Origin: a bacterium
Lineage (GTDB): Bacteria; Eisenbacteria; RBG-16-71-46
Assembly: GCA_043779265.1 (NCBI GenBank)
Contig: JAYWEM010000025.1
Span: 1 to 13,824, forward strand
Direction: 5' to 3'
DNA: 13,824 nt
A program made the translations under genes and the position numbers. A model generated the notes under the pieces. It searched no databases and was not told the origin of the DNA. It worked only from the letters and a program-made list of their open reading frames with translations. Shown one piece after another: positions 1-13,824 of the stretch (its first letter is position 1; every line of letters starts with the position of its first letter).

Positions 1-1143
1 AAGCGCATTAGGCTACTCGGCGCAGGACGCGATTTGACCACCCTCACCTGCACCGATAGTGAACAAGCGACTGTGTGGGTCAAGGGCTCCTGGTGCGGGC
101 TCGAAGCGCTCGCAGTGCGAGGCCCCGGGCAATCGGGAGCTGGTGTCGGGATTGCGATCGGACGTCTTGCGGCTGACCAGCCCACTCCGCCCGACATCAT
201 GCGCTACACGACACTTCGCGACGTGTATGTCGTGAACACACCCAGTTGGGGGGTCGAGATCCTGGGCTGGGATAGCGTTGGTGCAGACGCGAACACGCTG
301 AGCATCTTCGGCCGGTTCACTGGCCTGACGATCCAGTCGAACCGGTCGAACGGATGCCTTCGCATCCACCGGGGCGACACGACGCAGGACTTCATCAGCA
401 GCGAGTTCATCAACTTCGTGGGCCGAGCCACCCAGATGAACTTCGCTGACACCTGCTCGTTCCACCAGTGCACATTCGAGGGGCAGCCGGGTGCGGACCC
501 GGCGGCTTTCGTTGAGGTGTTGGACTGCCGCACCGTGAACTTCACCTCCTGCTGGTTCGAGGAGGATCCCGCCCCGACTCCGCCACCCGACTTGCAGAAG
601 GGGTGGTTCCTGAGCGCCACGGGCCCCCGCACAGAGGGGCTCACCATGACCGGCTTTATCTTCAACCGACCGACGGGCTATCGCACGGCGGCGGTGCTCT
701 TGGAAGCGTGTCCGGGAGCGGTGCTGACTGGGATGACGACATCGGCGCCTGTAGCTGCGATTGGATCGCAATCCCGTGATGACGTGATGCTGAGGCGCCA
801 GGAGAAGTTCCCGAACCCGGTCGGGCCGGATGATTTCATGTACCCGGAGCTGACGCTCTTGGGTGGCGTAGCCGACACGGCTGGCTTGAGTGCCGTTCGT
901 GTGACGAATGAGACCGCAGGGGAAGTGGTCGAGTCGCGACTCAGCGCAGGCGTTAGGAATTTCGAACGGAGACCCGGCGCGATACTTCCCTGGTTGGGAA
1001 CCCAAGCGCGTTCACACCAGTATGGACTGGGCCAACCGCAGCCCGGGACCACCTTCTTCAACGCGCAGTCGAACCGCCTCGAGTACTTCGACGGGACCGG
1101 TTGGCGCTTTCTACTCGGAACGCCGTTCGTGCCTGCGCCATGA
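1..1143 (+). CDS. 5'-truncated right-handed beta-helix protein (pectate lyase 3 / tailspike-like) with a C-terminal tail-fibre-like motif
   Basis: Frame 1 is open from base 1 (KRIRLLGAGRDLTTLTC...), so the TTG at 34 is probably not the true start. 'IRLLGAGRDLTTL' resembles the xxLxGxGxxxTxL motif near the start of pectate_lyase_3-like domains. Beta-helix-like rungs follow (TTLRDVYV, CSFHQCTFEG, VNFTSCWFE, LTMTGFIFN). The C-terminus has PQPGTTFFNAQSNRLEYFDGTGWRFL. The TGA stop overlaps the next ATG. Confidence 0.6.
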   Translation, partial: KRIRLLGAGRDLTTLTCTDSEQATVWVKGSWCGLEALAVRGPGQSGAGVGIAIGRLAADQPTPPDIMRYTTLRDVYVVNTPSWGVEILGWDSVGADANTLSIFGRFTGLTIQSNRSNGCLRIHRGDTTQDFISSEFINFVGRATQMNFADTCSFHQCTFEGQPGADPAAFVEVLDCRTVNFTSCWFEEDPAPTPPPDLQKGWFLSATGPRTEGLTMTGFIFNRPTGYRTAAVLLEACPGAVLTGMTTSAPVAAIGSQSRDDVMLRRQEKFPNPVGPDDFMYPELTLLGGVADTAGLSAVRVTNETAGEVVESRLSAGVRNFERRPGAILPWLGTQARSHQYGLGQPQPGTTFFNAQSNRLEYFDGTGWRFLLGTPFVPAP

Positions 1144-3143
1144 GAGTCGTGCTCGCCATACAACGGATTGCGATCTTCTCCCTTTGCGGTCTCGCGGTCC
1201 TGCACGACCCGGTCTTGGCGTCGCTACCTGCCTGGTCTGACTCAGGTGTGGTGATCACAGATGCGCCTGGCTTGCAGGTCGACCCGGTCGTTACCCCTGA
1301 CGTTCAGGGGGGCGCCTTCATCGCATGGCGTGATCAGCGGCCTGGGCTTCCGAATCCGCAAGCGCAGGCGTATCTGGCCCGTATCCAGATGGACGGCACT
1401 GTGTCCGCGGGATGGCAACCCGGGGGCCAGCTGGTCAGCATGGGCCAACTCGAAGTCTCCCGGCTCTCCACTTTTCCTGATGGGTCCGGCGGTGCTGTGC
1501 TCTTCTGGGAGGATCCGGGACCGAGCCCGGATTCGAGCATCGGGCGAGCGTTCATGCACAGGTTCCGGCCTGACGGATCTCCTCACCCGCAATTCCCGGT
1601 CGGGGGTGTTCGGCTGGGCCCCCTGGATACTCGAACGGGAATCGTCGCGATTTCATCCGGAGATGCCGGTTTCTTCATCGCCACGACTTGGAGAGGCCCA
1701 GAAGGCTCGGGGTCGCAGGGCGGGATCCTGCTCGCACGAGTGGACTCAATTGGCACGACCGCGAGCGGGTGGCCCTTGCAGGGGGTCCTGCTCTGCGATC
1801 AGCCGGGAGTTCAGTCACAGATCAGTCTGATGCCAGATCCCGTGGGCGGCGTGTTCGTGCTCTGGAGGGACCTTCGGTTCGGCTTCGGCTCGGAGCCCCA
1901 CCTGTTCGGGAGCCGAATCTCAGCGAGTGGCGTGCTGGACCCAGCATGGCCGGCGCAGGGCCGTGACCTTGCGACGTTCCGCTCTGGACTTGACGGCTAT
2001 CGCGCCGTGGCCGACCCGGTGGGGTTCATTGTCTCGCTCGACCCGGGAACACTTCTGGCGTTCGATGTCGATGGGCTCGCGCGCGCGGGGTGGCCACCAC
2101 CAGCCATCACTCAGGATGCCTTCCCGGTCGGGCCGCGCGATCAAGACCATCGCTTCGTGACCGCGGCGGAAGGCACGTACATCGTCTGGACCCGGCTCCG
2201 GCAGGTGCTTCCCACTATCAACGAAGCTCAACGGATGCTCCTTCTGGTCGAGCCGAGCGGCCAAGCGTTTCCTCCATGGCCGGACACCGGTCGAGTCGTC
2301 AACCGCAGCTTCGGGAGCGACACGGCGGGCGTCCTCGTCCTGCGATCGTCACCCGCCGGGCTCTACATTATCTACGGAGCCAAGGATGTTCAGGGCGGGT
2401 ACTGGAAGGGCGGAGTCCTTCAGCCCGATTTGAACTGGGCGCCGGGATGGCCCGACGGCGGGAGGCTGGTCTCTCGTTTCCTGGGCGGGGGTTCGAACTC
2501 TATCGCGACCGACGGGGCGCTTTATCACGCCTTCGTTTTTTCTGATGGACTCGGCACCGACGGCATCCGTCTCTTCAAGATGGGTGTGGATGGCCCAGTG
2601 CCCACGCTCGCCAGCGTCGCCATGGCAGAAGTGCGTGGCGATGCCGCGCACTTGGAGTGGCTGGTCGTCGACCCGCCGGCATCGCCCATTCACGTCGAGC
2701 GCAGCAGCGATGGCGTGGCGTGGGAGGACGTTGGGAATGCCGAGTCCGTGGCGGGTGATCGTGTGCGATTCAGCGAGGGCGGTTTCGCGCCCGGTGAACG
2801 GCGCGCGTACCGACTGGCGTGGACGGAGTTGGATGAGCTCAGGTCCGCGGGGTTGGTGTGGGTTCAGCGCGACGGAGTCTCGGCATTCGCACTCCGTTGG
2901 GCGCGGATCATGCATGCGCCCGAGAGGATCATCCTGGGTGTCCTAGGCGCCGAACGCGCTCCAATCCAATTGCGCCTCTTCGACGTGCAAGGGCGCCAGC
3001 GCGCGCAAGCGACGGCCGCGGCATCAGGCGACGCCGAAAGGGAGATCACGCTGCCCTCGGGTTCGCTCGCGCCGGGGGTGTATCTTGTGCGCGCCAGTCA
3101 GGGAGCGACCCATGCGATGGCGCGCGTTGTGGTGACACGGTAG
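1140..3143 (+). CDS. Secreted repeat (beta-propeller-like) protein with Ig-like domain and T9SS type A-like C-terminal sorting domain, 667 aa
   Basis: ATG at 1140 overlaps the upstream stop (ATGA). The N-terminus MRVVLAIQRIAIFSLCGLAVL...VLA is signal-peptide-like. Eight ~50-60 aa repeats follow (W-P-x-x-G...PDxxGG-x-F/V-x-x-W-x-D...ARI-x-x-x-G), then an Ig-like segment (PVPTLAS...HLEW...VERSSDG...YRL). The C-terminus QLRLFDVQGR...LAPGVYLVRASQG...ARVVVTR resembles Por/T9SS CTDs. Confidence 0.8.
   Translation: MRVVLAIQRIAIFSLCGLAVLHDPVLASLPAWSDSGVVITDAPGLQVDPVVTPDVQGGAFIAWRDQRPGLPNPQAQAYLARIQMDGTVSAGWQPGGQLVSMGQLEVSRLSTFPDGSGGAVLFWEDPGPSPDSSIGRAFMHRFRPDGSPHPQFPVGGVRLGPLDTRTGIVAISSGDAGFFIATTWRGPEGSGSQGGILLARVDSIGTTASGWPLQGVLLCDQPGVQSQISLMPDPVGGVFVLWRDLRFGFGSEPHLFGSRISASGVLDPAWPAQGRDLATFRSGLDGYRAVADPVGFIVSLDPGTLLAFDVDGLARAGWPPPAITQDAFPVGPRDQDHRFVTAAEGTYIVWTRLRQVLPTINEAQRMLLLVEPSGQAFPPWPDTGRVVNRSFGSDTAGVLVLRSSPAGLYIIYGAKDVQGGYWKGGVLQPDLNWAPGWPDGGRLVSRFLGGGSNSIATDGALYHAFVFSDGLGTDGIRLFKMGVDGPVPTLASVAMAEVRGDAAHLEWLVVDPPASPIHVERSSDGVAWEDVGNAESVAGDRVRFSEGGFAPGERRAYRLAWTELDELRSAGLVWVQRDGVSAFALRWARIMHAPERIILGVLGAERAPIQLRLFDVQGRQRAQATAAASGDAEREITLPSGSLAPGVYLVRASQGATHAMARVVVTR
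1233..2594 (+). repeat. Eight degenerate intragenic protein repeats (~50-60 aa, WPxxG-anchored)
   Basis: Repeat anchors in the translation are WSDSG, WQPGG, FPVGG, WPLQG, WPAQG, WPPPA, WPDTG and WPDGG. Repeats 1, 2 and 4 share PDxxGG-x-x-x-x-W-x-D. Similarity is visible at protein level only. Confidence 0.7.
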
Positions 3144-3254: not shown

Positions 3255-4034
3255 GTGGACGCGATGATGCTGATGGAGGCCTCGCTCGAGGTGGCGAAGC
3301 GGGCAGGTGAGGTGGCGAGCGCTCACTTCGGTCGCGGCCTCGTTCCCGAGATCAAGCCCGATGGTTCCCCGGTGACGCTGGCGGACCGCGAGGCCGAACA
3401 AGCAGCGCGGTCCTGGCTCGCCGAGCGATTCGCCGGAGACGGCCTATTCGGCGAGGAGTTCGGGCGCGAGCGGAGCGACGCTCCTCGCCAGTGGCTCATC
3501 GACCCGATCGATGGCACGCGGAGTTTCGTGCGCGGTGTGCCGTTGTGGGGAACGCTGATCGCCTGCATCGAGCACGGGCACGTCGTGGCGAGCGCGGCGG
3601 TGTTCCCTTCGGCCGGCCGCACGATGTGCGCCGCTCGTGCGGGGGGGACCTTCGTCGATGGCGTCCGTGCGCATGTCTCGAGCATCCCGACGCTCCAGGC
3701 GGCGCTTCTGGTGGCCACGGATCTCGGCTTCTCGGGGGACGCCTCGCGCGCGAGCCGCGCGGCCTCGCTTGCTGCGGAAGTGGGCACGACGCGCACGTGG
3801 GGCGATGCCTACGGCTACCTGCTCGTCGCCAGCGGAGCGGCCGAGATCATGCTCGATGGCCCCTACCAGCCTTGGGACGCTGCGCCGATGATGCTGGCGG
3901 TCGAGGAGGCGGGCGGCGTGTTCACCGACTGGCGCGGCTCGCTGGCCTGGGATGGCGCACACGGCGGCATCGCCACCAACGCCTCGCTCGCGAACACCGT
4001 GCGCAGCCATCTGGTGGGCCGAACCGGCGCGTAG
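3255..4034 (+). CDS. hisN: Histidinol-phosphate phosphatase, inositol monophosphatase family (HisN-like)
   Basis: GTG start with GGAGGA at 3245-3250. IMPase motifs are present: KPDGSPVTLADREAE, GEEFG, WLIDPIDGTRSFVRGVPLWGTLIA, WDAAP...VEEAGGVFTDWRG. RTWGDAYGYLLVASG is typical of the HisN subgroup. The substrate is inferred. Confidence 0.85.
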   Translation: MDAMMLMEASLEVAKRAGEVASAHFGRGLVPEIKPDGSPVTLADREAEQAARSWLAERFAGDGLFGEEFGRERSDAPRQWLIDPIDGTRSFVRGVPLWGTLIACIEHGHVVASAAVFPSAGRTMCAARAGGTFVDGVRAHVSSIPTLQAALLVATDLGFSGDASRASRAASLAAEVGTTRTWGDAYGYLLVASGAAEIMLDGPYQPWDAAPMMLAVEEAGGVFTDWRGSLAWDGAHGGIATNASLANTVRSHLVGRTGA

Positions 4035-4041
4035 CTCTCGC

Positions 4042-4935
4042 TCAGGCCTGCTGCCAGGGCATGCTCGCGTCCTTCGCGGGCCACCTCGGCTTGAGCCACA
4101 GGAACAGCAGAAGGGTGGTGACAGCGGCGAGTGCGAGGCCGATCCAGAGTCCGTCGGCCATCGAGGCGACTTCCGAGGCGCCGGGCACCTTGCCGCGGGC
4201 GGAGTCATCGGTCATGGAGAGCATCACCAGCGGGATCGAGTTGTTGATCGCGTGCGCCAGCGTCGTCGCCAAGAGCGAACGACTGCGCAGATGCAGCACG
4301 CACAACAGCACGCCGAACACGGTGATCGCGAGCGGGTTCATGTGCATGATCCCGAAGAGCGCGGAACTGAGCACGATACCGCGGGTCATGCCGATTCGCC
4401 TCGTGAACCGGTGCAGCAGAACGCCCCGGAACAGCAACTCCTCGGCTAGCGGCGCCAGTCCCACGACCACGGCAGCCTGAAGCCAGAGCGGGCTCTCGCC
4501 GAACTCGAAGCCCTCGCTGCTCCGACTGATGAACTGCTCCAGCATGGGCGGGTGGAAGCGGGCCAGCAGCCCGATCACCACCAGCAGGACAGCGCCGTTG
4601 GCGAGCAGGTGGAGCCACGCGCTCGAGACGCCTTCGAACACGGCGTTCGCGTCGGGCGCGCGACCGAGCGATCGCGACAGCGACATCCCCGCGCGCCTCG
4701 CGCACGCGGCGAACCACAGGACGACTCCGAGGTAGAACCATCCCGCGTGCAGCATGAAGCCGTGCTTGGCGGGCGAGAGCACCTCGGTGCCGGCCATGGC
4801 GACGGCGATCGGGAGCACGAGGCATGCGGCGAGCGCGAGGAACACCGGCAGCCAGCGAAGCGGGAAGTGCTGGTCGGGTGCGAGTGGGGCGGGGGACACC
4901 GGCGGCAGCGCCGCTTCATCGGGAGGGATCGTCAC
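4042..4935 (-). CDS. CPBP family (CAAX protease / Abi) intramembrane glutamic metalloprotease
   Basis: Multiple hydrophobic helices. Catalytic motifs APLAEELLFRG (EExxxR), SSALFGIMH (FxxxH) and HAINN (HxxxN). GTG start with no evident Shine-Dalgarno, so the start is somewhat uncertain. Confidence 0.9.
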   Translation of the reverse strand: MTIPPDEAALPPVSPAPLAPDQHFPLRWLPVFLALAACLVLPIAVAMAGTEVLSPAKHGFMLHAGWFYLGVVLWFAACARRAGMSLSRSLGRAPDANAVFEGVSSAWLHLLANGAVLLVVIGLLARFHPPMLEQFISRSSEGFEFGESPLWLQAAVVVGLAPLAEELLFRGVLLHRFTRRIGMTRGIVLSSALFGIMHMNPLAITVFGVLLCVLHLRSRSLLATTLAHAINNSIPLVMLSMTDDSARGKVPGASEVASMADGLWIGLALAAVTTLLLFLWLKPRWPAKDASMPWQQA

Positions 4936-4972
4936 GGGGGCGCAGACTAGTGGAGTTCTGGCGATTCGGCAT
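4936..4972 (-). promoter_or_regulatory. Candidate leaderless-type promoter for the CPBP gene (ATGCCG-N17-TAGTCT-N8-GTG)
   Basis: The minus strand reads ctgATGCCGaatcgccagaactccacTAGTCTgcgcccccGTG. It has a TANNNT -10 and no SD, with the same geometry as the site before vanW. Confidence 0.35.
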
Positions 4973-5290
4973 CAGGCGGCGGGCTCGGGCTCTGCGTGCA
5001 GGTCAGCTCGCGCTCGGGCCGGAACGCGGACACGGCGATCCCCACCAATTCCTCGATCGGAGCGCCGGGCATTAGGTCGCCGAGCGCCGCACCCAGTCGG
5101 GCGATCACCTCGTCGCGCGGATCGTGGGGTTCGAGAGGGCGTCGCTGCGCCCTTCTCGTGCGGGCGTCTGCGCGCTTGTGCGCCATGAACCAGGGCCCGA
5201 ACGTGCGTTCGGCTTGGTACTGATTGTGGGCCCGGCAGCAGAGTCGCATGTTGGTCACGGTCGACTCGCCGCCTCGCGCCGCGCCGAGGG

Positions 5291-5308
5291 CGCGTGCGCG
5301 CGCACGCG
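5291..5308. repeat. Perfect 18-bp palindrome next to the HNH frameshift junction
   Basis: CGCGTGCGC|GCGCACGCG, read directly. It is CG-rich, so less improbable than its length suggests. Confidence 0.7.
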
Positions 5309-5551
5309 GCGTACACCCGCTTTTCCTCGGCTGCGACTAGCTGCCTGAGCGCACGCTTGAGGATCGACGAGAGGTCCCCCGAGGGGATCGCGTGGCCCAG
5401 CAACGACTTGGCGTACAGCAACAGGTCGTGCGCCTCCTGGTCGAGGGTGGCGCGGAGTGCGAAGCACGCCGATGAGGGGGGCGCCGCTGCCGGCGTCGAC
5501 GGCGGTGAGGCCCCGACATCCTGCGTCAGAATGTCCCGACTCGGCCCCCCG

Positions 5552-5603
5552 GGTTCGTGAACCTCTGAATTCCTTGAGAATTCAGGTGGTTCCGGAACCA
5601 CCT
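5552..5603. repeat. Cluster of three adjacent inverted repeats, including a perfect 20-bp palindrome
   Basis: GGTTC-gt-GAACC (5552-5563), CTGAATTC-cttga-GAATTCAG (5565-5585) and AGGTGGTTCC|GGAACCACCT (5584-5603), all read directly. Confidence 0.85.
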
Positions 5604-6334
5604 CGTTCGGCGAGAGGGCGCGGACGGTTGCGGCAGGATGCCGAGTGCCGAAGCGCTCTGCGACCATGAGCGCCACCTCCGCCTTGGTTCGGTGCGAGGC
5701 GGCCTCGATCCACTCGTCGGCCGACTCAGGAGTGAGGTGAGGGGCCAGAAGGACCACGGCGCTCAGGTGCAGGCGTCCGTCCGCGATCGCCGCGAAGAGC
5801 ACCGGCAGTCTGCGAGCCGCGCGTGCGGCCCGGATGCGCTTGAGCGCCTCGTCCGAGGACATGCGCAACACATGCACGCAGTAGGCGTGCATCGACGGGT
5901 GCGCGGCGGGGACGTGGAGCTTGCGCGCCTCCGCCTCGGCCAGATGCGCCAGAAGTTCGGCCGTCGTACTGCGATCGCGAACGACAAGTGCCTTGAGGTC
6001 CTGAAGCAGCACATGATCCGGAATCTGTGAGAGTGAGTGCATGGTGGGACTCCGCGGGGGCAAGTCGCGGGGGCACACTCCCTTCCGATCATGGCCGCTC
6101 GCGGCGCTCGAGAGTGCCCGCCAAGCGCGAATTGCACGCGTTCGCGAGAACTTCTCCGAAACTCGGGTCGCAGTGAGCACAGGCCCCTGGACGATTCGTT
6201 CCATGCCCTCGCGGCAAGGGAGTCGGAGTCCGAGCCGATGGCTCCTCCGCAACCCGGTAAGAGGAAAGATGGGTCCGGACCGGGCACACGGGTAGCAGGT
6301 CGGATCGACGCCTCCCGAAATCGCCGCCCGACCG

Positions 6335-6371
6335 ATGCGCCTTGACACACGATGCGTTAGCCTGCCCGGCG
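6335..6371 (+). promoter_or_regulatory. Candidate leaderless-type promoter for the vanW operon (ATGCGC-N17-TAGCCT-N8-ATG)
   Basis: The plus strand reads ccgATGCGCcttgacacacgatgcgtTAGCCTgcccggcgATG. There is no SD before ATG 6372. Confidence 0.35.
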
Positions 6372-7124
6372 ATGCACTCGCCCCTCTCGATGTGGTTCGC
6401 GGCGTTCCTCGCGCTCGGCTCGTCCGTCGGCGCGCTCGAGGTGCATGCGCAGGGGCAGGAGTCCTCGCGAGCTCCCATCGAGGAGTTCCCGGTCTCGCTG
6501 GCCCGGTTCACCACGTCGCTCCTCGGCAGCAGCGACGCGCGGCTCGACAACATCCGCCTGGCGATCGACGCGCTCGATGGCCGAGTGCTGGAACCGGGTG
6601 AGGTGCTGTCCTTCAACGAGATCGTCGGGCCGCGCACGATCGAGCGCGGCTATCAGCTGGCGCCGGCCATCCTGCACGAGGAGCGGCAGATCCAGATCGG
6701 CGGCGGCATCTGCCAGCCCGCTTCGACACTGTTCGTGGCAGGACTCCTCTCCGGGCTCTCGGTGGTCGAACGCTGGCGGCACTCGAGCCCGATCGACTAC
6801 ATCGCGCTCGGTCACGATGCCGCCATCGCGTGGGGCGCCAAGGACCTGCGACTGCGCAACGACCTCGACCAGCGCGTGCGCGTGCGCTTCATCTGGTCGG
6901 GGGCGACGCTCTCGGCGGACGTGCAGGGCGAGCACGCCCCGCCCGAGCGCTACGAACTCCGCACCGAGGAGCACGAGGCGCCCGCCGATGCGGGACTCCC
7001 CGCCGCGCTCCCGGGCCGCGAGATCGAGCTCTACCGCGTGCTGCTCCAGAACGGCGAGGAGGCTGCACGCGAACTCGTGCTGCGCGATGTCTACCCGCCC
7101 ACGCGCGGCAGGCGGCGCGAGTGA
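6372..7124 (+). CDS. Exported VanW family protein
   Basis: VanW motifs RLDNIRLAIDALDGRVLEPGEVLSFNEIVGPRTIERGY, GGGICQ, ERWRHS, YIALGHDAAIAWGAKDLRLRND. Signal-peptide-like MHSPLSMWFAAFLALGSSVGALEVHA. Short G5-like C-terminal strand pair (GREIELYRVLLQNGEEAARELVLRDVYPP). ATG 6372 is preferred over TTG 6342. Confidence 0.9.
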   Translation: MHSPLSMWFAAFLALGSSVGALEVHAQGQESSRAPIEEFPVSLARFTTSLLGSSDARLDNIRLAIDALDGRVLEPGEVLSFNEIVGPRTIERGYQLAPAILHEERQIQIGGGICQPASTLFVAGLLSGLSVVERWRHSSPIDYIALGHDAAIAWGAKDLRLRNDLDQRVRVRFIWSGATLSADVQGEHAPPERYELRTEEHEAPADAGLPAALPGREIELYRVLLQNGEEAARELVLRDVYPPTRGRRRE

Positions 7125-7771
7125 GGGGGCGGCTGATCGCTCTGGCGTGGATGCTGACGGGCTCGGCCTGCTCGGCGGCGACCGGTCCCGAGCTCGAGCC
7201 CTATCGGGCGATGGCCACCTCCGCCCGTGGTGCCCACCTGATCGCCATCGCACAGGCGGCATTGATCGGCGAGCCGAGCGCGTCCACCGACTCGAACGCG
7301 GCCCTCTCGGCGCGCGACTCGCTCGTTCCCGAATGGCCGGCGACGCCGCGCCCGGTCTACGTGACCCTCGTCTCGGGCGGAGCGACGCGCGCCTGTCTCG
7401 GCACCGATTCACCGCTTGGCTCGCTCGAAGGCACGGTGCGCGCACTCGCCACCCGGCTCCTCACGGATGATCGTCGCCGTGCGCCGATCGACTCCGACGA
7501 GCTGGAGCGCCTGCGCTTGGTGATCGCTTTCGCCGGCGTCGCCGAGCCGATTGCCGAGCCCGATCGCGTCGACCCGATGCGCGAGGGCCTGCGCATCGAG
7601 ACCGAGCGAGGCGCCATCGCCTTCTTGCCCGGCGAGGCCCGCACGATCGCGTGGGCGCTGCGCGAGGCGCGCCGTGTCGGCGTGCTGACAGGCGCCACCT
7701 CCGATGCGCGCTTCAGCCGATTCGACGTCGTCACCCTGAGTGGACCCGCGCGAGTGCCTTCGCGCGATTGA
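7121..7771 (+). CDS. Exported (possible lipoprotein) AMMECR1-domain protein, 216 aa
   Basis: GTG at 7121 overlaps the vanW stop (GTGA) and is in frame with the 6830..7771 ORF. The N-terminus MRGRLIALAWMLTGSAC is a basic, hydrophobic, Cys signal (imperfect lipobox). AMMECR1-like motifs occur in order: PVYVTL, TRACLG (canonical LRGCIG), DDRRRAPIDSDELERLRLVI (canonical DPRFxPvxxxEL), DPMREGLRI, AFLPG. Confidence 0.75.
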   Translation: MRGRLIALAWMLTGSACSAATGPELEPYRAMATSARGAHLIAIAQAALIGEPSASTDSNAALSARDSLVPEWPATPRPVYVTLVSGGATRACLGTDSPLGSLEGTVRALATRLLTDDRRRAPIDSDELERLRLVIAFAGVAEPIAEPDRVDPMREGLRIETERGAIAFLPGEARTIAWALREARRVGVLTGATSDARFSRFDVVTLSGPARVPSRD

Positions 7772-7800
7772 ACCCTGCTGCCCGAAAGGAATCCGCGCTC

Positions 7801-10800
7801 ATGTTCCGGTCCGCCCAACGGTTCGTCTGCACTGCGATCCTGATCGCACTCACCGCCACCACAGCGCTCGCCGAGAGCCGCGTGAGCGGACAGGTGGTGG
7901 ACGCCGAGACGCAGAAGCCGGTCGCCAACGCCGATGTCGAACTGGCCAACTCGGGTGGCGGGCAGGGTTACTTCCGCACGCGCACGGATGCCAAAGGCGA
8001 GTTCTCGCTCGAACGCGTGCCCGCTGAGCGCAACTACCTGTTCACCGTTGCGGCCGATGGATTCACCGAGTGGGCGCTCGAAGGCTGGCAATTCCCCGCG
8101 GCCCAGCGCGACATCCGTCTGGTGGTGCCACTCGCGCGGGCCGGTGCGCTGTCCGTGAGCGCGACGCTGAGCGATGGCAAGTCGGTGGTCGCCGGTGCGC
8201 GCGTCACCCTCCGAGGCGAGCGTGGCGGTTCGTGGTGGGAGTCGCGGCAACGAGACCCCGAGCCTCGCTTCACCGACAAGGCGGGCGCGGCGCGATTCGA
8301 TGCGCTCCCGGCCGGTCTCTACACGGTCGAGGTGCAGGCGGCTGGACTTCGGCCACAGGAGTTGCGCCGCGTCTCGGTGCAGCGCGGCGCTCCGACACCG
8401 GTCGCGCTGGCGCTGACGCGGCCCGCGAGTCTCTCGGGGCTCGTGCGTCTGGCCGACTCGAGCGGCGTCGCGGGTGTGACCGTGATCGCGCGGGGGCCTG
8501 CCGAAGTCACGGCCACCACCGACTCCGATGGGGGCTTCACGCTGGCGAACCTGGCGCCCGGCCGTTACCGCGTCGAGGTGGCGCACGAGGGCTTCGAGCC
8601 CGGAGCCGCGCGCGATGGAGCCGCGGTCAAAGAAGGCGAGTCGCGCGACCTCGGAACGATCCGGGTCACGCCCCGCCCGGCCGCCTTCTCGTTCGTGCTC
8701 GAGCGCGAGGTGTTCGTCGCGGCCGCCGAGCCCGGAGACCGCGAGGCGCAGCGCCAGCAGGTCGGACTGCGTGCGTTCCGCGTCGGATCGCTCGAGCTGA
8801 CGCTCTATCGCATTCCCAATGCGCGTCTCCTCGATGGCCAGCGCGACTTCCGTGCGCTCGCGACGGCCGGCGCCGACACGAGCGGGCTGATCCGCACCGA
8901 CGCATGGCGATTCGGTGTGCAGAGTGGCGCGCCCTTCGCGTGGCGCGAGCAGATGCTGCCGCTGCCGAGGGACCAGGAGCCGGGCGCGTACCTGCTCGTC
9001 GGCCGCGCGGGCGCCATCGAGCGCAGGCAGATCTTCTTCGTCAGCGATCTCTCGCTGCTGATCAAGCGCTCCGCGACGCAGGTGGTGGCGTGGGCGGGTG
9101 CGCTGCGCACGGGTGTTCCGGTGCGCGGCGCCAGGCTCTACGCCGTGCAGACGCGTAACGAGCGCAGCATCGGCAGCGGACAGTCCTGGGACATCCCGGT
9201 GGCGGCTGCCGACGGCGAGGGCATCGCGACCGATGCGGAGGGCTTGGCGCGGCTGGCGGCTCCCGGGCGCAGTTCCCAACTTCGCATCGTGGCGATCAGC
9301 GAACGGCACGGCGTGTCGGTGGCCGAGGCGCCGCTCGGGGGCGATGCGACTCGGCAGGGCCAGCTGTTCCTCTTCACCGAGCGTCCGCTCTATCGCCCGG
9401 GGCAGACCGTGTACTGGAAGGCGTTCGCGCGGAAGCAGTCGGCCGAGCGCTACGCGCTGCCCGATCGCACGCAGGTGCGGCTCACGATGTCCGGTCCCGA
9501 TGGCGCCTCACTCGAGCTGCCGGCCGCCGAACTGAGCGCCACCGGCGGCGCCGACGGTTCGCTCGAGTTGCCCGCGGATGTGCCGCTCGGCGAGTGGACG
9601 CTCTCTGCGCATGCGGGCTCGATGTCGGGAACCGCCGCGCTCGGCGTGCAGCACTACCGCAAGCCCGAGTACCAAGTCGAGGTCACGCCCGATCGCGTCG
9701 CCATCGTCGGCGGTGACGAACTGCGATTCTTGGTCGCCGCGAGCTACTTCTTCGGCGCGCCGGTCGTGGGCGCCTCGGTGCGATGGACGTTGTTCGAGAC
9801 ACGGCTCGGCCGTGAGGCGGATCCGTTCGCCGACGGCTGGGAGTCGGGCGAACCCGAAGGCGAGGGCTACGGCCGCATGATCGAGTCCGGCGAGACACGC
9901 ACGGACGTCGACGGCCGTGTCGCGCTCACGTTCACTCCGCCTCGCAGCACGCACGATCGGCGCCTGTCGCTCGAGGTCGAGGTGCTCGATGGCGCGCAGC
10001 GACAGGTGAGTTCGCGCGGCTCGGCCGTCGTCGGACGCGGACTCTTCACACTTCACGTTTCCCCGGTCTCGCGCATGACCGCCGCGGGTCAGCCGATCGT
10101 GGTCGAGGTGCAGGCGAAAGATCACGCCGGCAGGCCCGTCGCCGCCGCGATCACCGTCGACCTCGATCAGGATGTCTGGAACCCGCTCGAGAGGCGCTAC
10201 GTGCGATCGACCCGGCCACTCGCCTCGCTTCCGGTCGAGACCGATGCAACGACCGGCCGCGCGCGCGCCACGATCGCCCCCGTGCTGGCCCGCTCGGGCT
10301 ACCTCATGCTGCGTGCCCGCGCCGAGGATGCGCGAGGCAATCGCATCTCGGCCGAGACCGGCATCTGGGTCTATGACGAGCGCGCGTGGAGCTACGCCTA
10401 TCGCTACCCGTCACTCGAGGTGCTCGCCGATCGCGCGGAGTACGCGCCGGGTGATACGGCGAAGTTGCTGGTCAACACCGACGTCAAAGATGCCCATGTC
10501 CTCGTGAGCGTCGAGGGCCGCGAGTTGCATGAGCTGCGCGTGCAGCACTTGTTCGGCCAGTCGGGGCTGATCCGCGTGCCGCTCAGGGGCTCCTATGGGG
10601 CGAACGCCTTCGTGGCGGTGCACGTTCGCCGCGGCCGCGAGGTGCACTCGCGCGTGCTCGAACTTCCGATCCGTGCCGAGCGCCACGATCTCTCGATCAC
10701 GCTCACACCCGACAAGGCCGAGTACCGCCCGCAGCAGGCCGCCTCGATCGCGATCGAGACCAAGGACGGCTCGGGGCGTCCGGTGGCCGCCGAAGTGGCG

Positions 10801-13110
10801 GTGGGCGTCGTCGACGAGGCGATCTACGCGCTGCGCGCCGACGGCACTCCCAAGTCGCACGACGTGTTCTACGGGCGACAGGCCAACCGCGTCTCGACCA
10901 CGGTCAGCTTCCCGACGCTCTACTTCGCGGGTGCCGACAAGAGCGAGGGCCGCGAGCCACGCCGCGACTTCCGCGATGTCGCGCTGTGGGCGCCGCGCGT
11001 GACGACCGGTGCCGACGGCCGCGGCCGCGTCGAGCTCAAGTGGCCCGACAACCTCACCACCTGGCGCGTCACGGCGCGCGGCGCGACCGAGGCGACGCAG
11101 GTCGGCGAGGCGATCGCGCGAACCCGGGTCTCCAAGGAGCTCGTGGCACGTCTCACCGTGCCGCGCGCCTTCACGGCCGGCGACCAGGCGACGCTCGTGA
11201 CCGTGGTGAGCAATCGTACCGCCTCGCCGCTCACCGGTGTGCGCGAACGCATGAAGGTGACAGGGCCCGCGCAGCTGGTCGGCGGCGCCGAGCGAACGTC
11301 GAGTCTTCCCGCCGATGGCGAGTCGAGGAGCAGCTGGACCGTGCGCACGGAGGCCGAGAGTCCCAAGGACGGCAGCGATTCGAAGCTGACGCTCACCTTC
11401 GGCGCGACGGGCTCGAGCGACGCCGACGCGTTGGAACTGCCGGTGCCCGTGCTGCCGCGCGCAGTGCCGCTCACGCTCAGGGGCGCGGGGAGCACGAACT
11501 TCCCGGCGTTCCGCGAGGCCGTCACAATGCCGGCGGACCTCGTGCGCTCGGGCAGTTCGCTCACCTTGACGCTCTCGCCCGGCGCGGGCGGCGCGGTGCG
11601 CACGGCGGCCGATGCGTTGCTCGCCTACGAGTACGGCTGCACCGAGCAGACAGCCAACGCGCTGCGCGCCACGCTCGCGCTACTCGCCGCGGCGCACAAG
11701 GCGGGCACCACGGTGCCCGGGGCCGATGCGATGCGCGACAAGCTGGCCGGACGGTTCCAGAGGTTGCTGGCGCTCAAGCGCTGGGATGGCGCGTGGGGCT
11801 GGTGGAGCAACGACGACCCCGATCCGTTCATGACGGCGCTCGCGATCGAGGCGCTCGCCATGTGCGTGCAGGGCGACATGCAGAAGGAGGCGGCCCAGAA
11901 CGCACTGCAGGAAGCGCAGTACGGTCTGCAGCGCGCCATGTTCCAGCTACGCGAACCCGACGGCCTCGCGTTCGCGGCCATGCACCTCGCGCGCGTCGCC
12001 GAGTTGCCCGAGGCGAAGCAGCGCCATGCCGACCTGCTGGCGCAGCTCGACGGCGTGGTGGCGAGCCTGGCGGCCCAGAAGGACCAGTTGGGATCGGCCG
12101 GTTCGGCCTGCGCCGCCGTGGCTGCCTCCCGCCTTGGGCGCAGTGCCGATGCCAGGGCCTTCCTCGATCAGACGATGGCGCGCACCATCAAGCGAGGACT
12201 CGACCTGGCCCTTCCCGCCGACCCCGGCGCCGAGGAGCGCTGGTTCGGCGAGCACGACGAGGGCTCGGCCTACGCGCTCATGGCGCTCGCTCGCATCGAC
12301 CCCAAGGACTCGCGTGGCGACGCGCTCGTGCGCGGACTGCTCGCTACGAGGCGCGGCCACATGTGGCGCAGCACGCGCGTGACCGGCCCGGTCGCCGTGG
12401 CGCTCGCCGAGTGGCTGGCCGTGCACCCCGAGCAGTTGTTCCCGGTGGGCGCGGTGAGCGCGCGCTGGAACGGCACGCTCCTCCACCGTGCCGTGCTGGA
12501 CGATGCGTTCGGTGGCGGCGCCACAGTGACGCTCACCGGCCCGCAGCTCCAGCCGGGAGCCAACACGCTCGAGCTGGGCACGGACGGCACGGGCTTGCTC
12601 CTGTGGGCGTGGGAGGCGCGGGCGAACGTGCCGAGTCCGGGCCCTGCGACCGACGCTTCGAGGCTGGCGGTGCAGCGCGAGTACCTGCGCGCCACGCGCG
12701 TCGCCGACCGCCGCGGCCGGCCGCGCTGGCTCGCGGCCCCATTCGACGCGCGCCAGCCGCTCGCCGTCGGCGACGCCGTGCTCGTGCGGCTGACGCTCAC
12801 CGCGCCCAAGGCGCTCTCGCACCTGCTCATCGAGGATCCGCGTCCCGCCGGATTCGAGGTGGATGCCATCCTGCCCGATGGCGCCGAGCGGCCATGGAGC
12901 ACGTCGGGCGAGGTGAGGGACGATCGTTCGGTCTTCTTCGTGGGCTCGCTTCCGCAGGGCCGCAACGTGATCGAGTACCTGCTGCGGCCCGAACTGGAGG
13001 GCACCTACACCGCGCTGCCCACGAGGGCGAGCGCCATGTACGCTCCCGACTTGGTCGTGCGAGGCCGCGAGGAACGGCTCACCGTGGCGCCGCGCCCGGG
13101 TCCCCGCTGA
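7801..13110 (+). CDS. Bacterial alpha-2-macroglobulin family protein with three N-terminal carboxypeptidase-regulatory-like domains, 1769 aa
   Basis: ATG at 7801 with AAAGGA at 7785-7790 and a Sec signal ending TTALA. MG2 motif FLFTERPLYRPGQTVYWK. Also YRKPEYQV, VGVVDEAIYAL, RRDFRDVALW...PDNLTTWRVTARG, thioester YEYGCTEQ (CTEQ at 11638-11649), DGAWGWW, and C-terminal VGDAVLVRL...IEDPRPAGFE...EVRDDR...LPTRASAMYAP. Confidence 0.95.
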   Translation: MFRSAQRFVCTAILIALTATTALAESRVSGQVVDAETQKPVANADVELANSGGGQGYFRTRTDAKGEFSLERVPAERNYLFTVAADGFTEWALEGWQFPAAQRDIRLVVPLARAGALSVSATLSDGKSVVAGARVTLRGERGGSWWESRQRDPEPRFTDKAGAARFDALPAGLYTVEVQAAGLRPQELRRVSVQRGAPTPVALALTRPASLSGLVRLADSSGVAGVTVIARGPAEVTATTDSDGGFTLANLAPGRYRVEVAHEGFEPGAARDGAAVKEGESRDLGTIRVTPRPAAFSFVLEREVFVAAAEPGDREAQRQQVGLRAFRVGSLELTLYRIPNARLLDGQRDFRALATAGADTSGLIRTDAWRFGVQSGAPFAWREQMLPLPRDQEPGAYLLVGRAGAIERRQIFFVSDLSLLIKRSATQVVAWAGALRTGVPVRGARLYAVQTRNERSIGSGQSWDIPVAAADGEGIATDAEGLARLAAPGRSSQLRIVAISERHGVSVAEAPLGGDATRQGQLFLFTERPLYRPGQTVYWKAFARKQSAERYALPDRTQVRLTMSGPDGASLELPAAELSATGGADGSLELPADVPLGEWTLSAHAGSMSGTAALGVQHYRKPEYQVEVTPDRVAIVGGDELRFLVAASYFFGAPVVGASVRWTLFETRLGREADPFADGWESGEPEGEGYGRMIESGETRTDVDGRVALTFTPPRSTHDRRLSLEVEVLDGAQRQVSSRGSAVVGRGLFTLHVSPVSRMTAAGQPIVVEVQAKDHAGRPVAAAITVDLDQDVWNPLERRYVRSTRPLASLPVETDATTGRARATIAPVLARSGYLMLRARAEDARGNRISAETGIWVYDERAWSYAYRYPSLEVLADRAEYAPGDTAKLLVNTDVKDAHVLVSVEGRELHELRVQHLFGQSGLIRVPLRGSYGANAFVAVHVRRGREVHSRVLELPIRAERHDLSITLTPDKAEYRPQQAASIAIETKDGSGRPVAAEVAVGVVDEAIYALRADGTPKSHDVFYGRQANRVSTTVSFPTLYFAGADKSEGREPRRDFRDVALWAPRVTTGADGRGRVELKWPDNLTTWRVTARGATEATQVGEAIARTRVSKELVARLTVPRAFTAGDQATLVTVVSNRTASPLTGVRERMKVTGPAQLVGGAERTSSLPADGESRSSWTVRTEAESPKDGSDSKLTLTFGATGSSDADALELPVPVLPRAVPLTLRGAGSTNFPAFREAVTMPADLVRSGSSLTLTLSPGAGGAVRTAADALLAYEYGCTEQTANALRATLALLAAAHKAGTTVPGADAMRDKLAGRFQRLLALKRWDGAWGWWSNDDPDPFMTALAIEALAMCVQGDMQKEAAQNALQEAQYGLQRAMFQLREPDGLAFAAMHLARVAELPEAKQRHADLLAQLDGVVASLAAQKDQLGSAGSACAAVAASRLGRSADARAFLDQTMARTIKRGLDLALPADPGAEERWFGEHDEGSAYALMALARIDPKDSRGDALVRGLLATRRGHMWRSTRVTGPVAVALAEWLAVHPEQLFPVGAVSARWNGTLLHRAVLDDAFGGGATVTLTGPQLQPGANTLELGTDGTGLLLWAWEARANVPSPGPATDASRLAVQREYLRATRVADRRGRPRWLAAPFDARQPLAVGDAVLVRLTLTAPKALSHLLIEDPRPAGFEVDAILPDGAERPWSTSGEVRDDRSVFFVGSLPQGRNVIEYLLRPELEGTYTALPTRASAMYAPDLVVRGREERLTVAPRPGPR

Positions 13111-13123
13111 GAAAGAGGAAGCC

Positions 13124-13645
13124 ATGCCCCTGATCGCCAAGCCCCGCGCTGATGAGCATCACGAGTACTTCGGTCGCTACATCGCACTGGTGGGCGACGA
13201 CGCATTCACCGCGCTCGCCGGGCAAGCGGCCTCGACGCCGCAGCGCCTCCAGGGCATGACCGAGAGTCAGGCCATGCATCGCTACGCGCCGGACAAGTGG
13301 AGCGTCAAGGATGCGATCCAGCACATGGCCGATGTGGAGCGGGTGTTCGCCTACCGCGCACTGCGCTTCGCGCGCGCCGATTCGACCGAGTTGCCCGGAT
13401 TCGATGAGAACGCCTGGGCGCCGGCGGCAGGAGCCGACCGGCGCAGCGCGAGCGAGTTGCTGTTCGAGTTGGCGGCCGTGCGCGCTGCGACACTCACGCT
13501 GTTCGCGGGTCTCGATCACGAGGCGCTGCTTCGGCGCGGGCGCGCCAATGGCGCCGAGACGAGCGTTCGCGCGATCGCCCACATCATCGCCGGCCACGAG
13601 CGGCATCATCTGGCGGTGCTGAAGGACAAGTACCAGGTCGGCTGA
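13124..13645 (+). CDS. DinB family protein (DinB/YfiT-like putative metal-dependent thiol transferase)
   Basis: AGAGGA SD 13 nt after the A2M stop region. RYAPDKWSVKDAIQHMADVERVFAYRALRFAR, LPGFDEN and IAGHERHH supply the His ligands of the DinB fold. Confidence 0.9.
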   Translation: MPLIAKPRADEHHEYFGRYIALVGDDAFTALAGQAASTPQRLQGMTESQAMHRYAPDKWSVKDAIQHMADVERVFAYRALRFARADSTELPGFDENAWAPAAGADRRSASELLFELAAVRAATLTLFAGLDHEALLRRGRANGAETSVRAIAHIIAGHERHHLAVLKDKYQVG

Positions 13646-13654
13646 GCGGCTGAT

Positions 13655-13693
13655 CCCGGCCGAGCCCGAGCGGCGCCTCGTGCGGGCTCCGGG
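13655..13693 (+). terminator. GC-rich hairpin after dinB (possible terminator or RNA stability element, no U-tract)
   Basis: CCCG..GAGCCCG (13655-13668) pairs with CGGGCTC-CGGG (13683-13693). No poly-T follows. Confidence 0.3.
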
Positions 13694-13701
13694 GTGCGTG
13701 G

Positions 13702-13731
13702 TTTCCAGCCCCGCCGCCGGGTTGCTACCTT
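13702..13731 (+). promoter_or_regulatory. Candidate sigma70-type promoter for the next gene beyond the window
   Basis: TTTCCA/TTCCAG, a 17-18 nt spacer, then extended -10 TGcTACCTT (13723-13731) in otherwise very GC-rich intergenic DNA. Confidence 0.3.
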
Positions 13732-13824
13732 GTAGCCGCATCCCGCCACTCTCCCCGTGGGTGCCGGGCCCATTCCGGGCCGCGGCCCCGACTCCTCGAG
13801 TGACCGTCTCCCGGAGCCCCGCTT

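Follow-up and report, generated by a model that had tools for sequence, protein, structure and literature searches.

Bacterial alpha-2-macroglobulins (A2Ms) are classed into two operon types, defined by PBP1C and by Mag/Yfa proteins. Type I A2Ms trap proteases through a thioester after cleavage of a bait region, and the trap-and-repair hypothesis arose from the position of their genes next to pbpC (PMC5764988). The type II mag operon guards Pseudomonas from peptidoglycan-targeting effectors of the type VI secretion system (PMC12663445). Here we analyzed a stretch of 13,824 nucleotides (the window), which is contig C25 (JAYWEM010000025.1) of a 3.43-Mb, 92% complete metagenome-assembled genome (GCA_043779265.1) from the candidate phylum Eisenbacteria. 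In the window, genes for a VanW-domain protein, an exported AMMECR1-domain protein and an A2M (hereafter the trio) follow one another directly. From the sequence, an initial annotation had suggested that these genes, perhaps together with a downstream DinB gene, form an undescribed envelope-defence operon. Our results suggest that the trio is likely an undescribed third type of A2M operon, in which the transpeptidase partner is swapped and AMMECR1 is added, and which would work as a trap with wall repair. Full-text searches, which did not reach subscription papers, found no description joining VanW or AMMECR1 with bacterial A2Ms. To this extent, the combination appears undescribed, as had been supposed.

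The locus resembles the type I pairs of A2M and PBP1C (E. coli yfhM/ECAM-pbpC and Salmonella Sa-A2M) in several respects. As read from the sequence, its A2M is a large periplasmic protein with MG domains, a bait region, a TED domain, CxEQ and MG10. It is encoded beside a predicted peptidoglycan transpeptidase, and relatives from the same phylum hold the classical pair at the equivalent place. In contrast to type I, however, the partner is a VanW-type cysteine enzyme, by its sequence an L,D-transpeptidase (LDT), without a glycosyltransferase, and an exported AMMECR1 is added. Furthermore, the A2M possesses three N-terminal CarboxypepD_reg domains, lacks a lipobox, has its partners upstream and belongs to a separate A2M lineage. 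With the type II operons (P. aeruginosa magABCDEF and E. coli yfaATSQP), the locus shares an arrangement of several envelope genes in which an A2M is accompanied by accessory proteins of its own. However, MagD and YfaS have no thioester, whereas the A2M of the window has CTEQ. No Mag/Yfa-type protein was detected with Pfam among the neighbours of the trio, the Mag/Yfa families having been sought there and not genome-wide.

The arrangement is conserved in Eisenbacteria. Gene calls in relatives are open reading frames (ORFs) picked for this analysis, and counts across kin are not independent. In seven relatives taken from a whole-genome search, AMMECR1 had A2M beside it in six and VanW in six, and every miss was at a contig end. 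When one genome per species was scanned with the AMMECR1 alignment, 36 loci were found, nearly all from Eisenbacteria; six of these are the same contigs as in the seven-relative set. A2M followed AMMECR1 in 35 of the 36 loci; the contig of the exception ends 73 nt past AMMECR1. VanW preceded AMMECR1 in 28 loci, and in the other eight the contig begins at most 112 nt from the AMMECR1 match. Four Pfam families were also searched in a sample of 151 genomes of the phylum, and their positions were compared. Matches to A2M came from 54 genomes and matches to VanW from 29, of which 27 also have A2M; BiPBP_C exceeded its cut-off in 19. Nineteen A2M genes stand in a full trio on one contig, and three further trios are interrupted where a contig ends. 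AMMECR1 matches of the low-scoring (exported) type number 25, and all are within such trio loci. The 46 high-scoring matches (at least 154 bits) are located elsewhere, and proteins representing this kind are fused to Memo or LigB. In the family to which the window belongs, A2M occurs in 25 of 59 genomes and VanW in 24 of 59; the trio is also present in another family (f10). Since only 25 of the 59 genomes have A2M, the module is accessory, as expected for a defence system.

Thus, the trio is syntenic in other genomes, both in these 36 loci and on distant metagenome contigs (described below). In one family (f2), A2M and VanW occur without AMMECR1. In the two f2 loci (L052, 7441-13370; L053, 7309-12773), the A2M has CarboxypepD_reg, no CxEQ and no TED or bMG10 match in Pfam. 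A divergent VanW gene (E 2e-19) lies directly after it, and AMMECR1 was not found in these loci.

A profile of Eisenbacterial AMMECR1 was then compared with 1.84 billion representatives, which gave 27 matches at E <=1e-30 and 387 at <=1e-10. The second-tier matches, about 200-220 aa in length, have hydrophobic segments at the N-terminus and carry the motif LLPGEA[RK]T. The longer ones are canonical Memo- or LigB-AMMECR1 fusions and one SpoIID-AMMECR1 fusion. Metagenome contigs were scanned with an alignment of 20 second-tier proteins, and neighbours in the resulting 57 loci were assigned by hidden Markov models from the alignments of this analysis. A2M and/or VanW was found beside AMMECR1 in 38 loci (31 with A2M; 7 with VanW and then the contig end). 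The remaining 19 have neither. Among these, 10 contigs are no longer than about 4 kb, 7 loci have a long flank to either side of the gene, and in 2 (L084 and L094) one flank is long. Full sets were detected in 23 loci, namely nine VanW-AMMECR1-A2M, four AMMECR1-A2M-VanW, one A2M-VanW with AMMECR1 about 3 kb downstream, and nine in which AMMECR1 is followed by an A2M::VanW fusion. In L105, for example, Pfam places bMG10 at 1320-1441 and VanW at 1471-1599 of one open frame. Several of the fusion contigs are near-identical, so that the independent cases are fewer than nine. The GC content of the metagenome contigs ranges from 0.31 to 0.73. Thus, several distant lineages carry the set. Atlas entries with a score of 0.88 name Spirochaetota and Thermodesulfobacteriota, as leads only. 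An apparent VanW-AMMECR1 fusion (P0121) was left uncounted as a probable frameshift or gene-call artefact; its AMMECR1 half has its own internal signal sequence after a junk-like linker.

VanW and pbpC are mutually exclusive in the sampled genomes of the phylum. The initial annotation had reported no classical A2M partner in the window, which Pfam searches of the nine window ORFs confirmed. BiPBP_C had no match among these ORFs or in the whole genome at its 92% completeness. In the 151-genome sample, no genome has both VanW and BiPBP_C; pbpC therefore does not lie just outside the window, having been found neither in its own genome nor in any of the 29 VanW genomes. All 19 pbpC genomes have an A2M, and 14 A2M genes are 4.1-4.7 kb from the BiPBP_C match. 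A PBP1C with Transgly, Transpeptidase and BiPBP_C domains was confirmed by Pfam after the A2M in L045, L046 and L059, the last of which the genome search had missed. The pbpC pairs belong to other families of the class.

A2M trees were calculated from 48 hand-chosen sequences, including 16 from Eisenbacterial trios (of 27 whose length suffices for the motif) and 16 of the 19 metagenome A2Ms; the roots are arbitrary, and many rows have deviant composition. One branch sets the 32 AMMECR1/VanW-linked A2Ms apart from the rest (FastTree 98; IQ-TREE SH-aLRT 98 on 1423 columns), and the Eisenbacterial trio A2Ms among them are one group (support 100). On the other side are the pbpC-linked and stand-alone A2Ms from the same phylum, and the two f2 A2Ms are apart from both (IQ-TREE). 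The trio-linked A2Ms are a lineage separate from the pbpC-linked A2Ms.

The features of the locus are listed in Table 1. The co-orientation of the four genes and their spacing, as given in the initial annotation, were all read in the DNA. The stop codon TGA of VanW (7122-7124) and the start codon GTG of AMMECR1 (7121-7123) overlap in GTGA. A 29-nt gap with a ribosome-site-like GAAAGGA separates the AMMECR1 stop (7771) from the A2M ATG (7801). Between the A2M stop (13110) and the DinB ATG (13124) is a 13-nt gap with a purine-rich, ribosome-site-like AGAGGA. A promoter and terminator scan of 5900-13824 gave no promoter-like and two terminator-like sites, which is not above shuffled sequences. 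Judged by this packing and conservation, the genes at 6372-13110 likely form one operon.

Table 1. Positions of the genes, domains and predicted functional residues of the A2M locus in the window
Feature	Position	Strand	Length	Basis or remark
VanW-domain gene	6372-7124	+	250 aa	Pfam PF04294, E 7e-40
VanW protein layout: signal peptide, VanW catalytic domain, C-terminal beta region weakly like G5 domains	6372-7124	+		
Codon of Cys114, predicted catalytic nucleophile	6711-6713	+		checked by translation
Codon of His137	6780-6782	+		checked by translation
Codon of Asp149	6816-6818	+		checked by translation
AMMECR1-domain gene	7121-7771	+	216 aa	Pfam PF01871, E 2e-15, 57 bits
AMMECR1-fold protein, GTG start	7121-7771	+		conserved Cys92 codon at 7394-7396
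A2M gene	7801-13110	+	1769 aa	Pfam domains
A2M cleavable signal peptide	7801-7872	+		inspection
First of three CarboxypepD_reg domains (residues 28-102)	7882-8106	+		PF13620, E 8.5e-38, 3 stretches, further ones to about residue 280
A2M bait-region domain (residues 872-1011)	10414-10833	+		PF07703 A2M_BRD, E 1.5e-14
Thioester motif CTEQ (Cys1280) in TED domain	11638-11649	+		translation AYEYGCTEQTANA; GCTEQ at 11635-11649
Bacterial MG10 domain (residues 1624-1750)	12670-13050	+		PF17973, E 1.8e-22
DinB_2 / YfiT-like gene	13124-13645	+	173 aa	Pfam PF12867, E 1.7e-20

VanW domains are LDT catalytic domains with a conserved Cys-His-Asp triad and an essential cysteine (Bollinger et al. 2024, PMC11348318). 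Therefore, the earlier wording that VanW is of unknown activity is outdated. The VanW domain of the window scored 136 bits (Pfam cut-off, 27). With the NCBIfam model vanW-gen for glycopeptide-resistance VanW, the score was 49.5 bits, far under the cut-off of 365. Cys114 is the sole cysteine of the protein. No substitution of Cys114, His137 or Asp149 was seen in an alignment of 33 VanW sequences, which included 27 orthologues from Eisenbacteria, two divergent ones and three VanW proteins from Firmicutes. These residues were matched to the published triad (PMC11348318) by motif position, not by alignment with Ldt4/Ldt5. As with C. difficile Ldt4 and Ldt5 (PMC11348318), the protein has a VanW catalytic domain and the invariant Cys-His-Asp and is predicted to be extracytoplasmic; its C-terminal part weakly resembles the G5-like part of Ldt5. 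It differs from the two enzymes in that it has no PG4 domain, carries a signal peptide where those have a membrane anchor, occurs in a diderm phylum and is dedicated to an A2M operon. An AlphaFold2 model was obtained with a predicted local distance difference test score (pLDDT) of 76. Its Foldseek matches in the PDB were G5 domains only (about 65 residues; E 0.015). No solved structure was related by sequence, and no significant fold match was detected for the catalytic part in the Foldseek PDB search.

Export signals were judged by eye and hydropathy alone. The N-termini of VanW (MHSPLSMWFAAFLALGSSVGALEVHA, followed by QG), AMMECR1 (MRGRLIALAWMLTGSAC) and A2M (MFRSAQRFVCTAILIALTATTALA, followed by ES; that is, TATTALA before ESRVSG) are signal-like, with charged, then hydrophobic, then small residues. 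By these means, the export signals ascribed to the first three genes are present; none was found in the DinB protein. An N-terminal hydrophobic segment was observed in all 21 aligned AMMECR1 orthologues and in 14 of the 15 trio-type A2Ms inspected. The genome has five matches to Omp85-family genes. In addition, a 680-aa ORF without a Pfam family upstream of the trio (1101-3143, + strand) possesses a C-terminal type A sorting domain of the type IX secretion system (NCBIfam TIGR04183, 25.3 bits; cut-off, 23). Because of the Omp85 genes and this sorting domain, the organism is likely a diderm with an outer membrane and periplasm, and the three exported proteins would thus meet in the periplasm.

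The A2M contains, in order, three CarboxypepD_reg stretches, MG2, bMG5, A2M_BRD, A2M, TED (TED_complement) and bMG10 in Pfam. Its distant sequence matches include complement C4/C5, A2ML1 and, weakly, E. coli YfhM (4ziu). It is the only A2M of its genome. C[TS]EQ was retained in 27 of the 28 sufficiently long Eisenbacterial trio-type A2Ms, and CxEQ in 18 of the 19 long metagenome A2Ms. N-terminal CarboxypepD_reg domains (one to three copies) were detected in the A2M of the window, both f2 A2Ms and five of the six metagenome A2Ms scanned. They are found in L065, L095, L120, L078 and L113 and are absent from the pbpC-type A2M of L045, the stand-alone A2M of L056 and the fusion-type A2M of L105.

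Based on these results, we propose, with a probability of roughly 0.55, that the trio acts in the periplasm as a trap-and-repair module, with a VanW LDT in the place of PBP1C. The exchange of VanW for PBP1C, which the initial annotation had suggested, gains support because VanW and pbpC are mutually exclusive in the phylum, A2M::VanW fusions exist, and the VanW domain is a peptidoglycan transpeptidase (PMC11348318). An invading protease or peptidase effector would cleave the bait region of the A2M, and the thioester would then trap the attacker, as in the type I A2Ms of E. coli and Salmonella. From tetrapeptide stems, VanW would form 3-3 cross-links that are insensitive to beta-lactams and so mend or stiffen the damaged peptidoglycan. 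In E. coli under outer-membrane stress, the 3-3 cross-links made by LdtD are part of a proposed repair complex (PMC7554673), and the VanW step would parallel that of LdtD and the one proposed for PBP1C next to YfhM. The exported AMMECR1 would be a third dedicated partner; our guess is that it prepares the substrate (peptidoglycan or peptide) or senses it. A function in defence and repair is likely on these comparisons. If so, the trio would add a third operon type to the two known for bacterial A2Ms. It would also give independent support to the long-standing trap-and-repair idea, since the place of PBP1C is held by a non-homologous peptidoglycan transpeptidase, which some lineages even have as a fusion with the trap. 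VanW-type LDTs would gain a role in outer-membrane bacteria, in which VanW was called scarce by the paper that defined these enzymes (PMC11348318).

Several observations weigh against this proposal. Four of the seven foreign VanW proteins assayed in the cited work gave no activity in that assay (PMC11348318). In the VanW model, the loop holding His137 and Asp149 is poorly modelled (pLDDT < 50). The genome also encodes a YkuD-type LDT; thus, 3-3 cross-links in themselves do not require VanW. The part of AMMECR1 in the module is a guess, and exported AMMECR1 occurs without A2M or VanW in the seven metagenome loci with long flanks on both sides. The thioester motif was lost in one Eisenbacterial trio (L014, where the site reads RGVEP) and in one metagenome set (L088, MESPEG), while the VanW and AMMECR1 neighbours were kept. 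Thus, covalent trapping is not universal. Finally, no lipobox was found in the N-terminus of the A2M, unlike YfhM (a lipoprotein according to its PDB title, 'Uncharacterized lipoprotein YfhM') and four of nine pbpC-type relatives.

The last point bears on the main rival, which we regard as unlikely. VanW may couple the A2M, or an A2M-protease adduct, covalently to the stem peptides of peptidoglycan, as YkuD-type LDTs do with Braun's lipoprotein, and thereby give an anchor-less A2M a fixed place in the periplasm. Such LDTs link Braun's lipoprotein to the wall (PMC7554673), and attachment of proteins to peptidoglycan by LDTs is established (PMC7554673, PMC12274547). A cleavable signal peptide without a lipobox was seen in 14 of the 15 trio-type A2Ms inspected, whereas the pbpC-type relatives often have a lipobox. 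The fusion of VanW to the C-terminus of A2M in nine metagenome loci would also fit an enzyme that targets or retains the protein to which it is attached. However, the fused forms have their own N-terminal membrane anchor-like helix, and the VanW enzymes characterised so far form 3-3 cross-links (PMC11348318).

As for the exported AMMECR1, the Pfam score was 57 bits (cut-off, 25), and the AlphaFold2 model had a pLDDT of 87. Foldseek matched the model only with the archaeal AMMECR1 structures 1zq7, 1vaj and 1wsc (probability 1.00), all three of which are of unknown function. Invariant residues in 21 orthologues include C92, D117, R119 and the P170-G171-E172...T175 motif. The R-x-C-x-G cysteine and D-x-R of the family are retained, and LLPGEA[RK]T is found where canonical members carry a FLPQV-type motif. 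With TIGR04335, the model for protein A of the AmmeMemoRadiSam system, the protein scored 39 bits (cut-off, 99). It shares the fold, the R-x-C-x-G cysteine and D-x-R with that protein; in contrast, it is exported with a signal sequence, has the LLPGEA[RK]T motif and has no adjoining Memo or radical SAM gene. No Memo gene was found in the window. The genome has a single AMMECR1 match, and its sole Memo match is elsewhere (contig C142). A role of AMMECR1 as a lipoprotein anchor was considered and rejected, because the GSAC of the window is not kept in the orthologues. A strict tie between AMMECR1 and the thioester was also rejected. The f2 A2Ms, which lack both, would fit; however, the pbpC type has CxEQ but no AMMECR1, and the reverse holds for L014 and L088.

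The partners of exported AMMECR1 vary among the metagenome loci. SpoIID::AMMECR1 fusions were found in protein P0278 and in L118 (8942-10522), where an A2M follows. In L080 and L091, a gene with a penicillin-binding protein (PBP) transpeptidase domain lies directly before AMMECR1 and is perhaps fused to it, with no A2M within 10 kb. In L104 and L084, exported AMMECR1 stands among unrelated genes. The conserved cysteine and Asp-x-Arg are retained, and every one of the varying partners is a wall enzyme. Our guess from this is that AMMECR1 has an activity towards peptidoglycan or peptides and is not a mere scaffold. The AMMECR1 family gains an exported branch with defined, assayable partners. More tentatively, and with some doubt, the trio may be a third, widely spread class of bacterial A2M systems, in which the trap and the wall enzymes (VanW, SpoIID and PBP) would require exported AMMECR1 as a partner in catalysis or maturation. 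If true, this would be the first biochemical setting for the AMMECR1 fold, which occurs from archaea to man and has no assigned function.

The SpoIID fusions and PBP neighbours tie exported AMMECR1 to wall metabolism generally. They are therefore in keeping with a housekeeping role, in which the A2M-like protein would restrain peptidoglycan endopeptidases of the cell itself and VanW and AMMECR1 would remodel the wall in growth or stress, with no attack from outside. The pair of genes for an extracytoplasmic function (ECF) sigma factor and a FecR-like protein that precedes the A2M in L053 points in the same direction. However, the module is patchy in its own family, and VanW occurs in the phylum sample almost only with A2M, which is more in line with an accessory system than with core wall growth. 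Moreover, broad protease traps are typified by a bait region and a thioester, and the thioester is kept in nearly all Eisenbacterial trio-type A2Ms. We therefore rate this role as improbable, below the tethering of A2M by VanW. That the genes are an ordinary cluster of exported proteins without shared function is excluded for practical purposes by their adjacency across the 36 genome loci and the 23 full metagenome sets in three gene orders, by the A2M::VanW fusions and by the linked A2Ms being a lineage of their own.

The DinB gene, which the initial annotation had tentatively placed in the operon, is not a core member. It follows A2M in 12 of the 21 loci with enough flank, all in the sub-lineage of the window. 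The DinB_2 match was over the Pfam cut-off (74 bits), and that to NCBIfam YfiT was 40.8 bits (cut-off, 160). The gene was probably added downstream in one sub-lineage, and its product probably acts in the cytoplasm.

Upstream of the trio, a gene of the inositol monophosphatase family is present in many Eisenbacterial loci (3255-4935 in the window, and in relatives). The closest relatives also keep a protease gene of the CAAX type (divergent, Rce1-like) there, and the local synteny is retained. Between the CAAX protease gene and VanW, the window has a 458-aa ORF (4972-6348, - strand) with no Pfam or NCBIfam family and a C-terminal third rich in Arg and Pro. It has no counterpart at that place in the relative from the same genus (L002/L009). 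Homologues with 31-44% identity were found near the trio in other Eisenbacteria (L004/L013, L021, L023 and L007/L034), in varying position and orientation. This ORF may be a mobile or decaying gene.

In the 151-genome sample, 24 A2M matches have no VanW or pbpC within 10 kb on the same contig; some are on contig fragments, and some are stand-alone A2Ms of about 2000 aa. Stand-alone A2Ms of 2040-2137 aa with no wall-enzyme neighbour were found in L056, L057 and L061, which have CSEQ, and in L060 and L063, which have no CxEQ. Two genomes (G003 and G143) possess a stand-alone A2M besides the trio A2M. In L058 (7206-10856; G106:C34), an A2M-like protein is encoded in two ORFs, one with A2M and bait domains and the other with TED and the A2M receptor-binding domain. 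They follow GH57/branching-enzyme-like genes, an unusual context.

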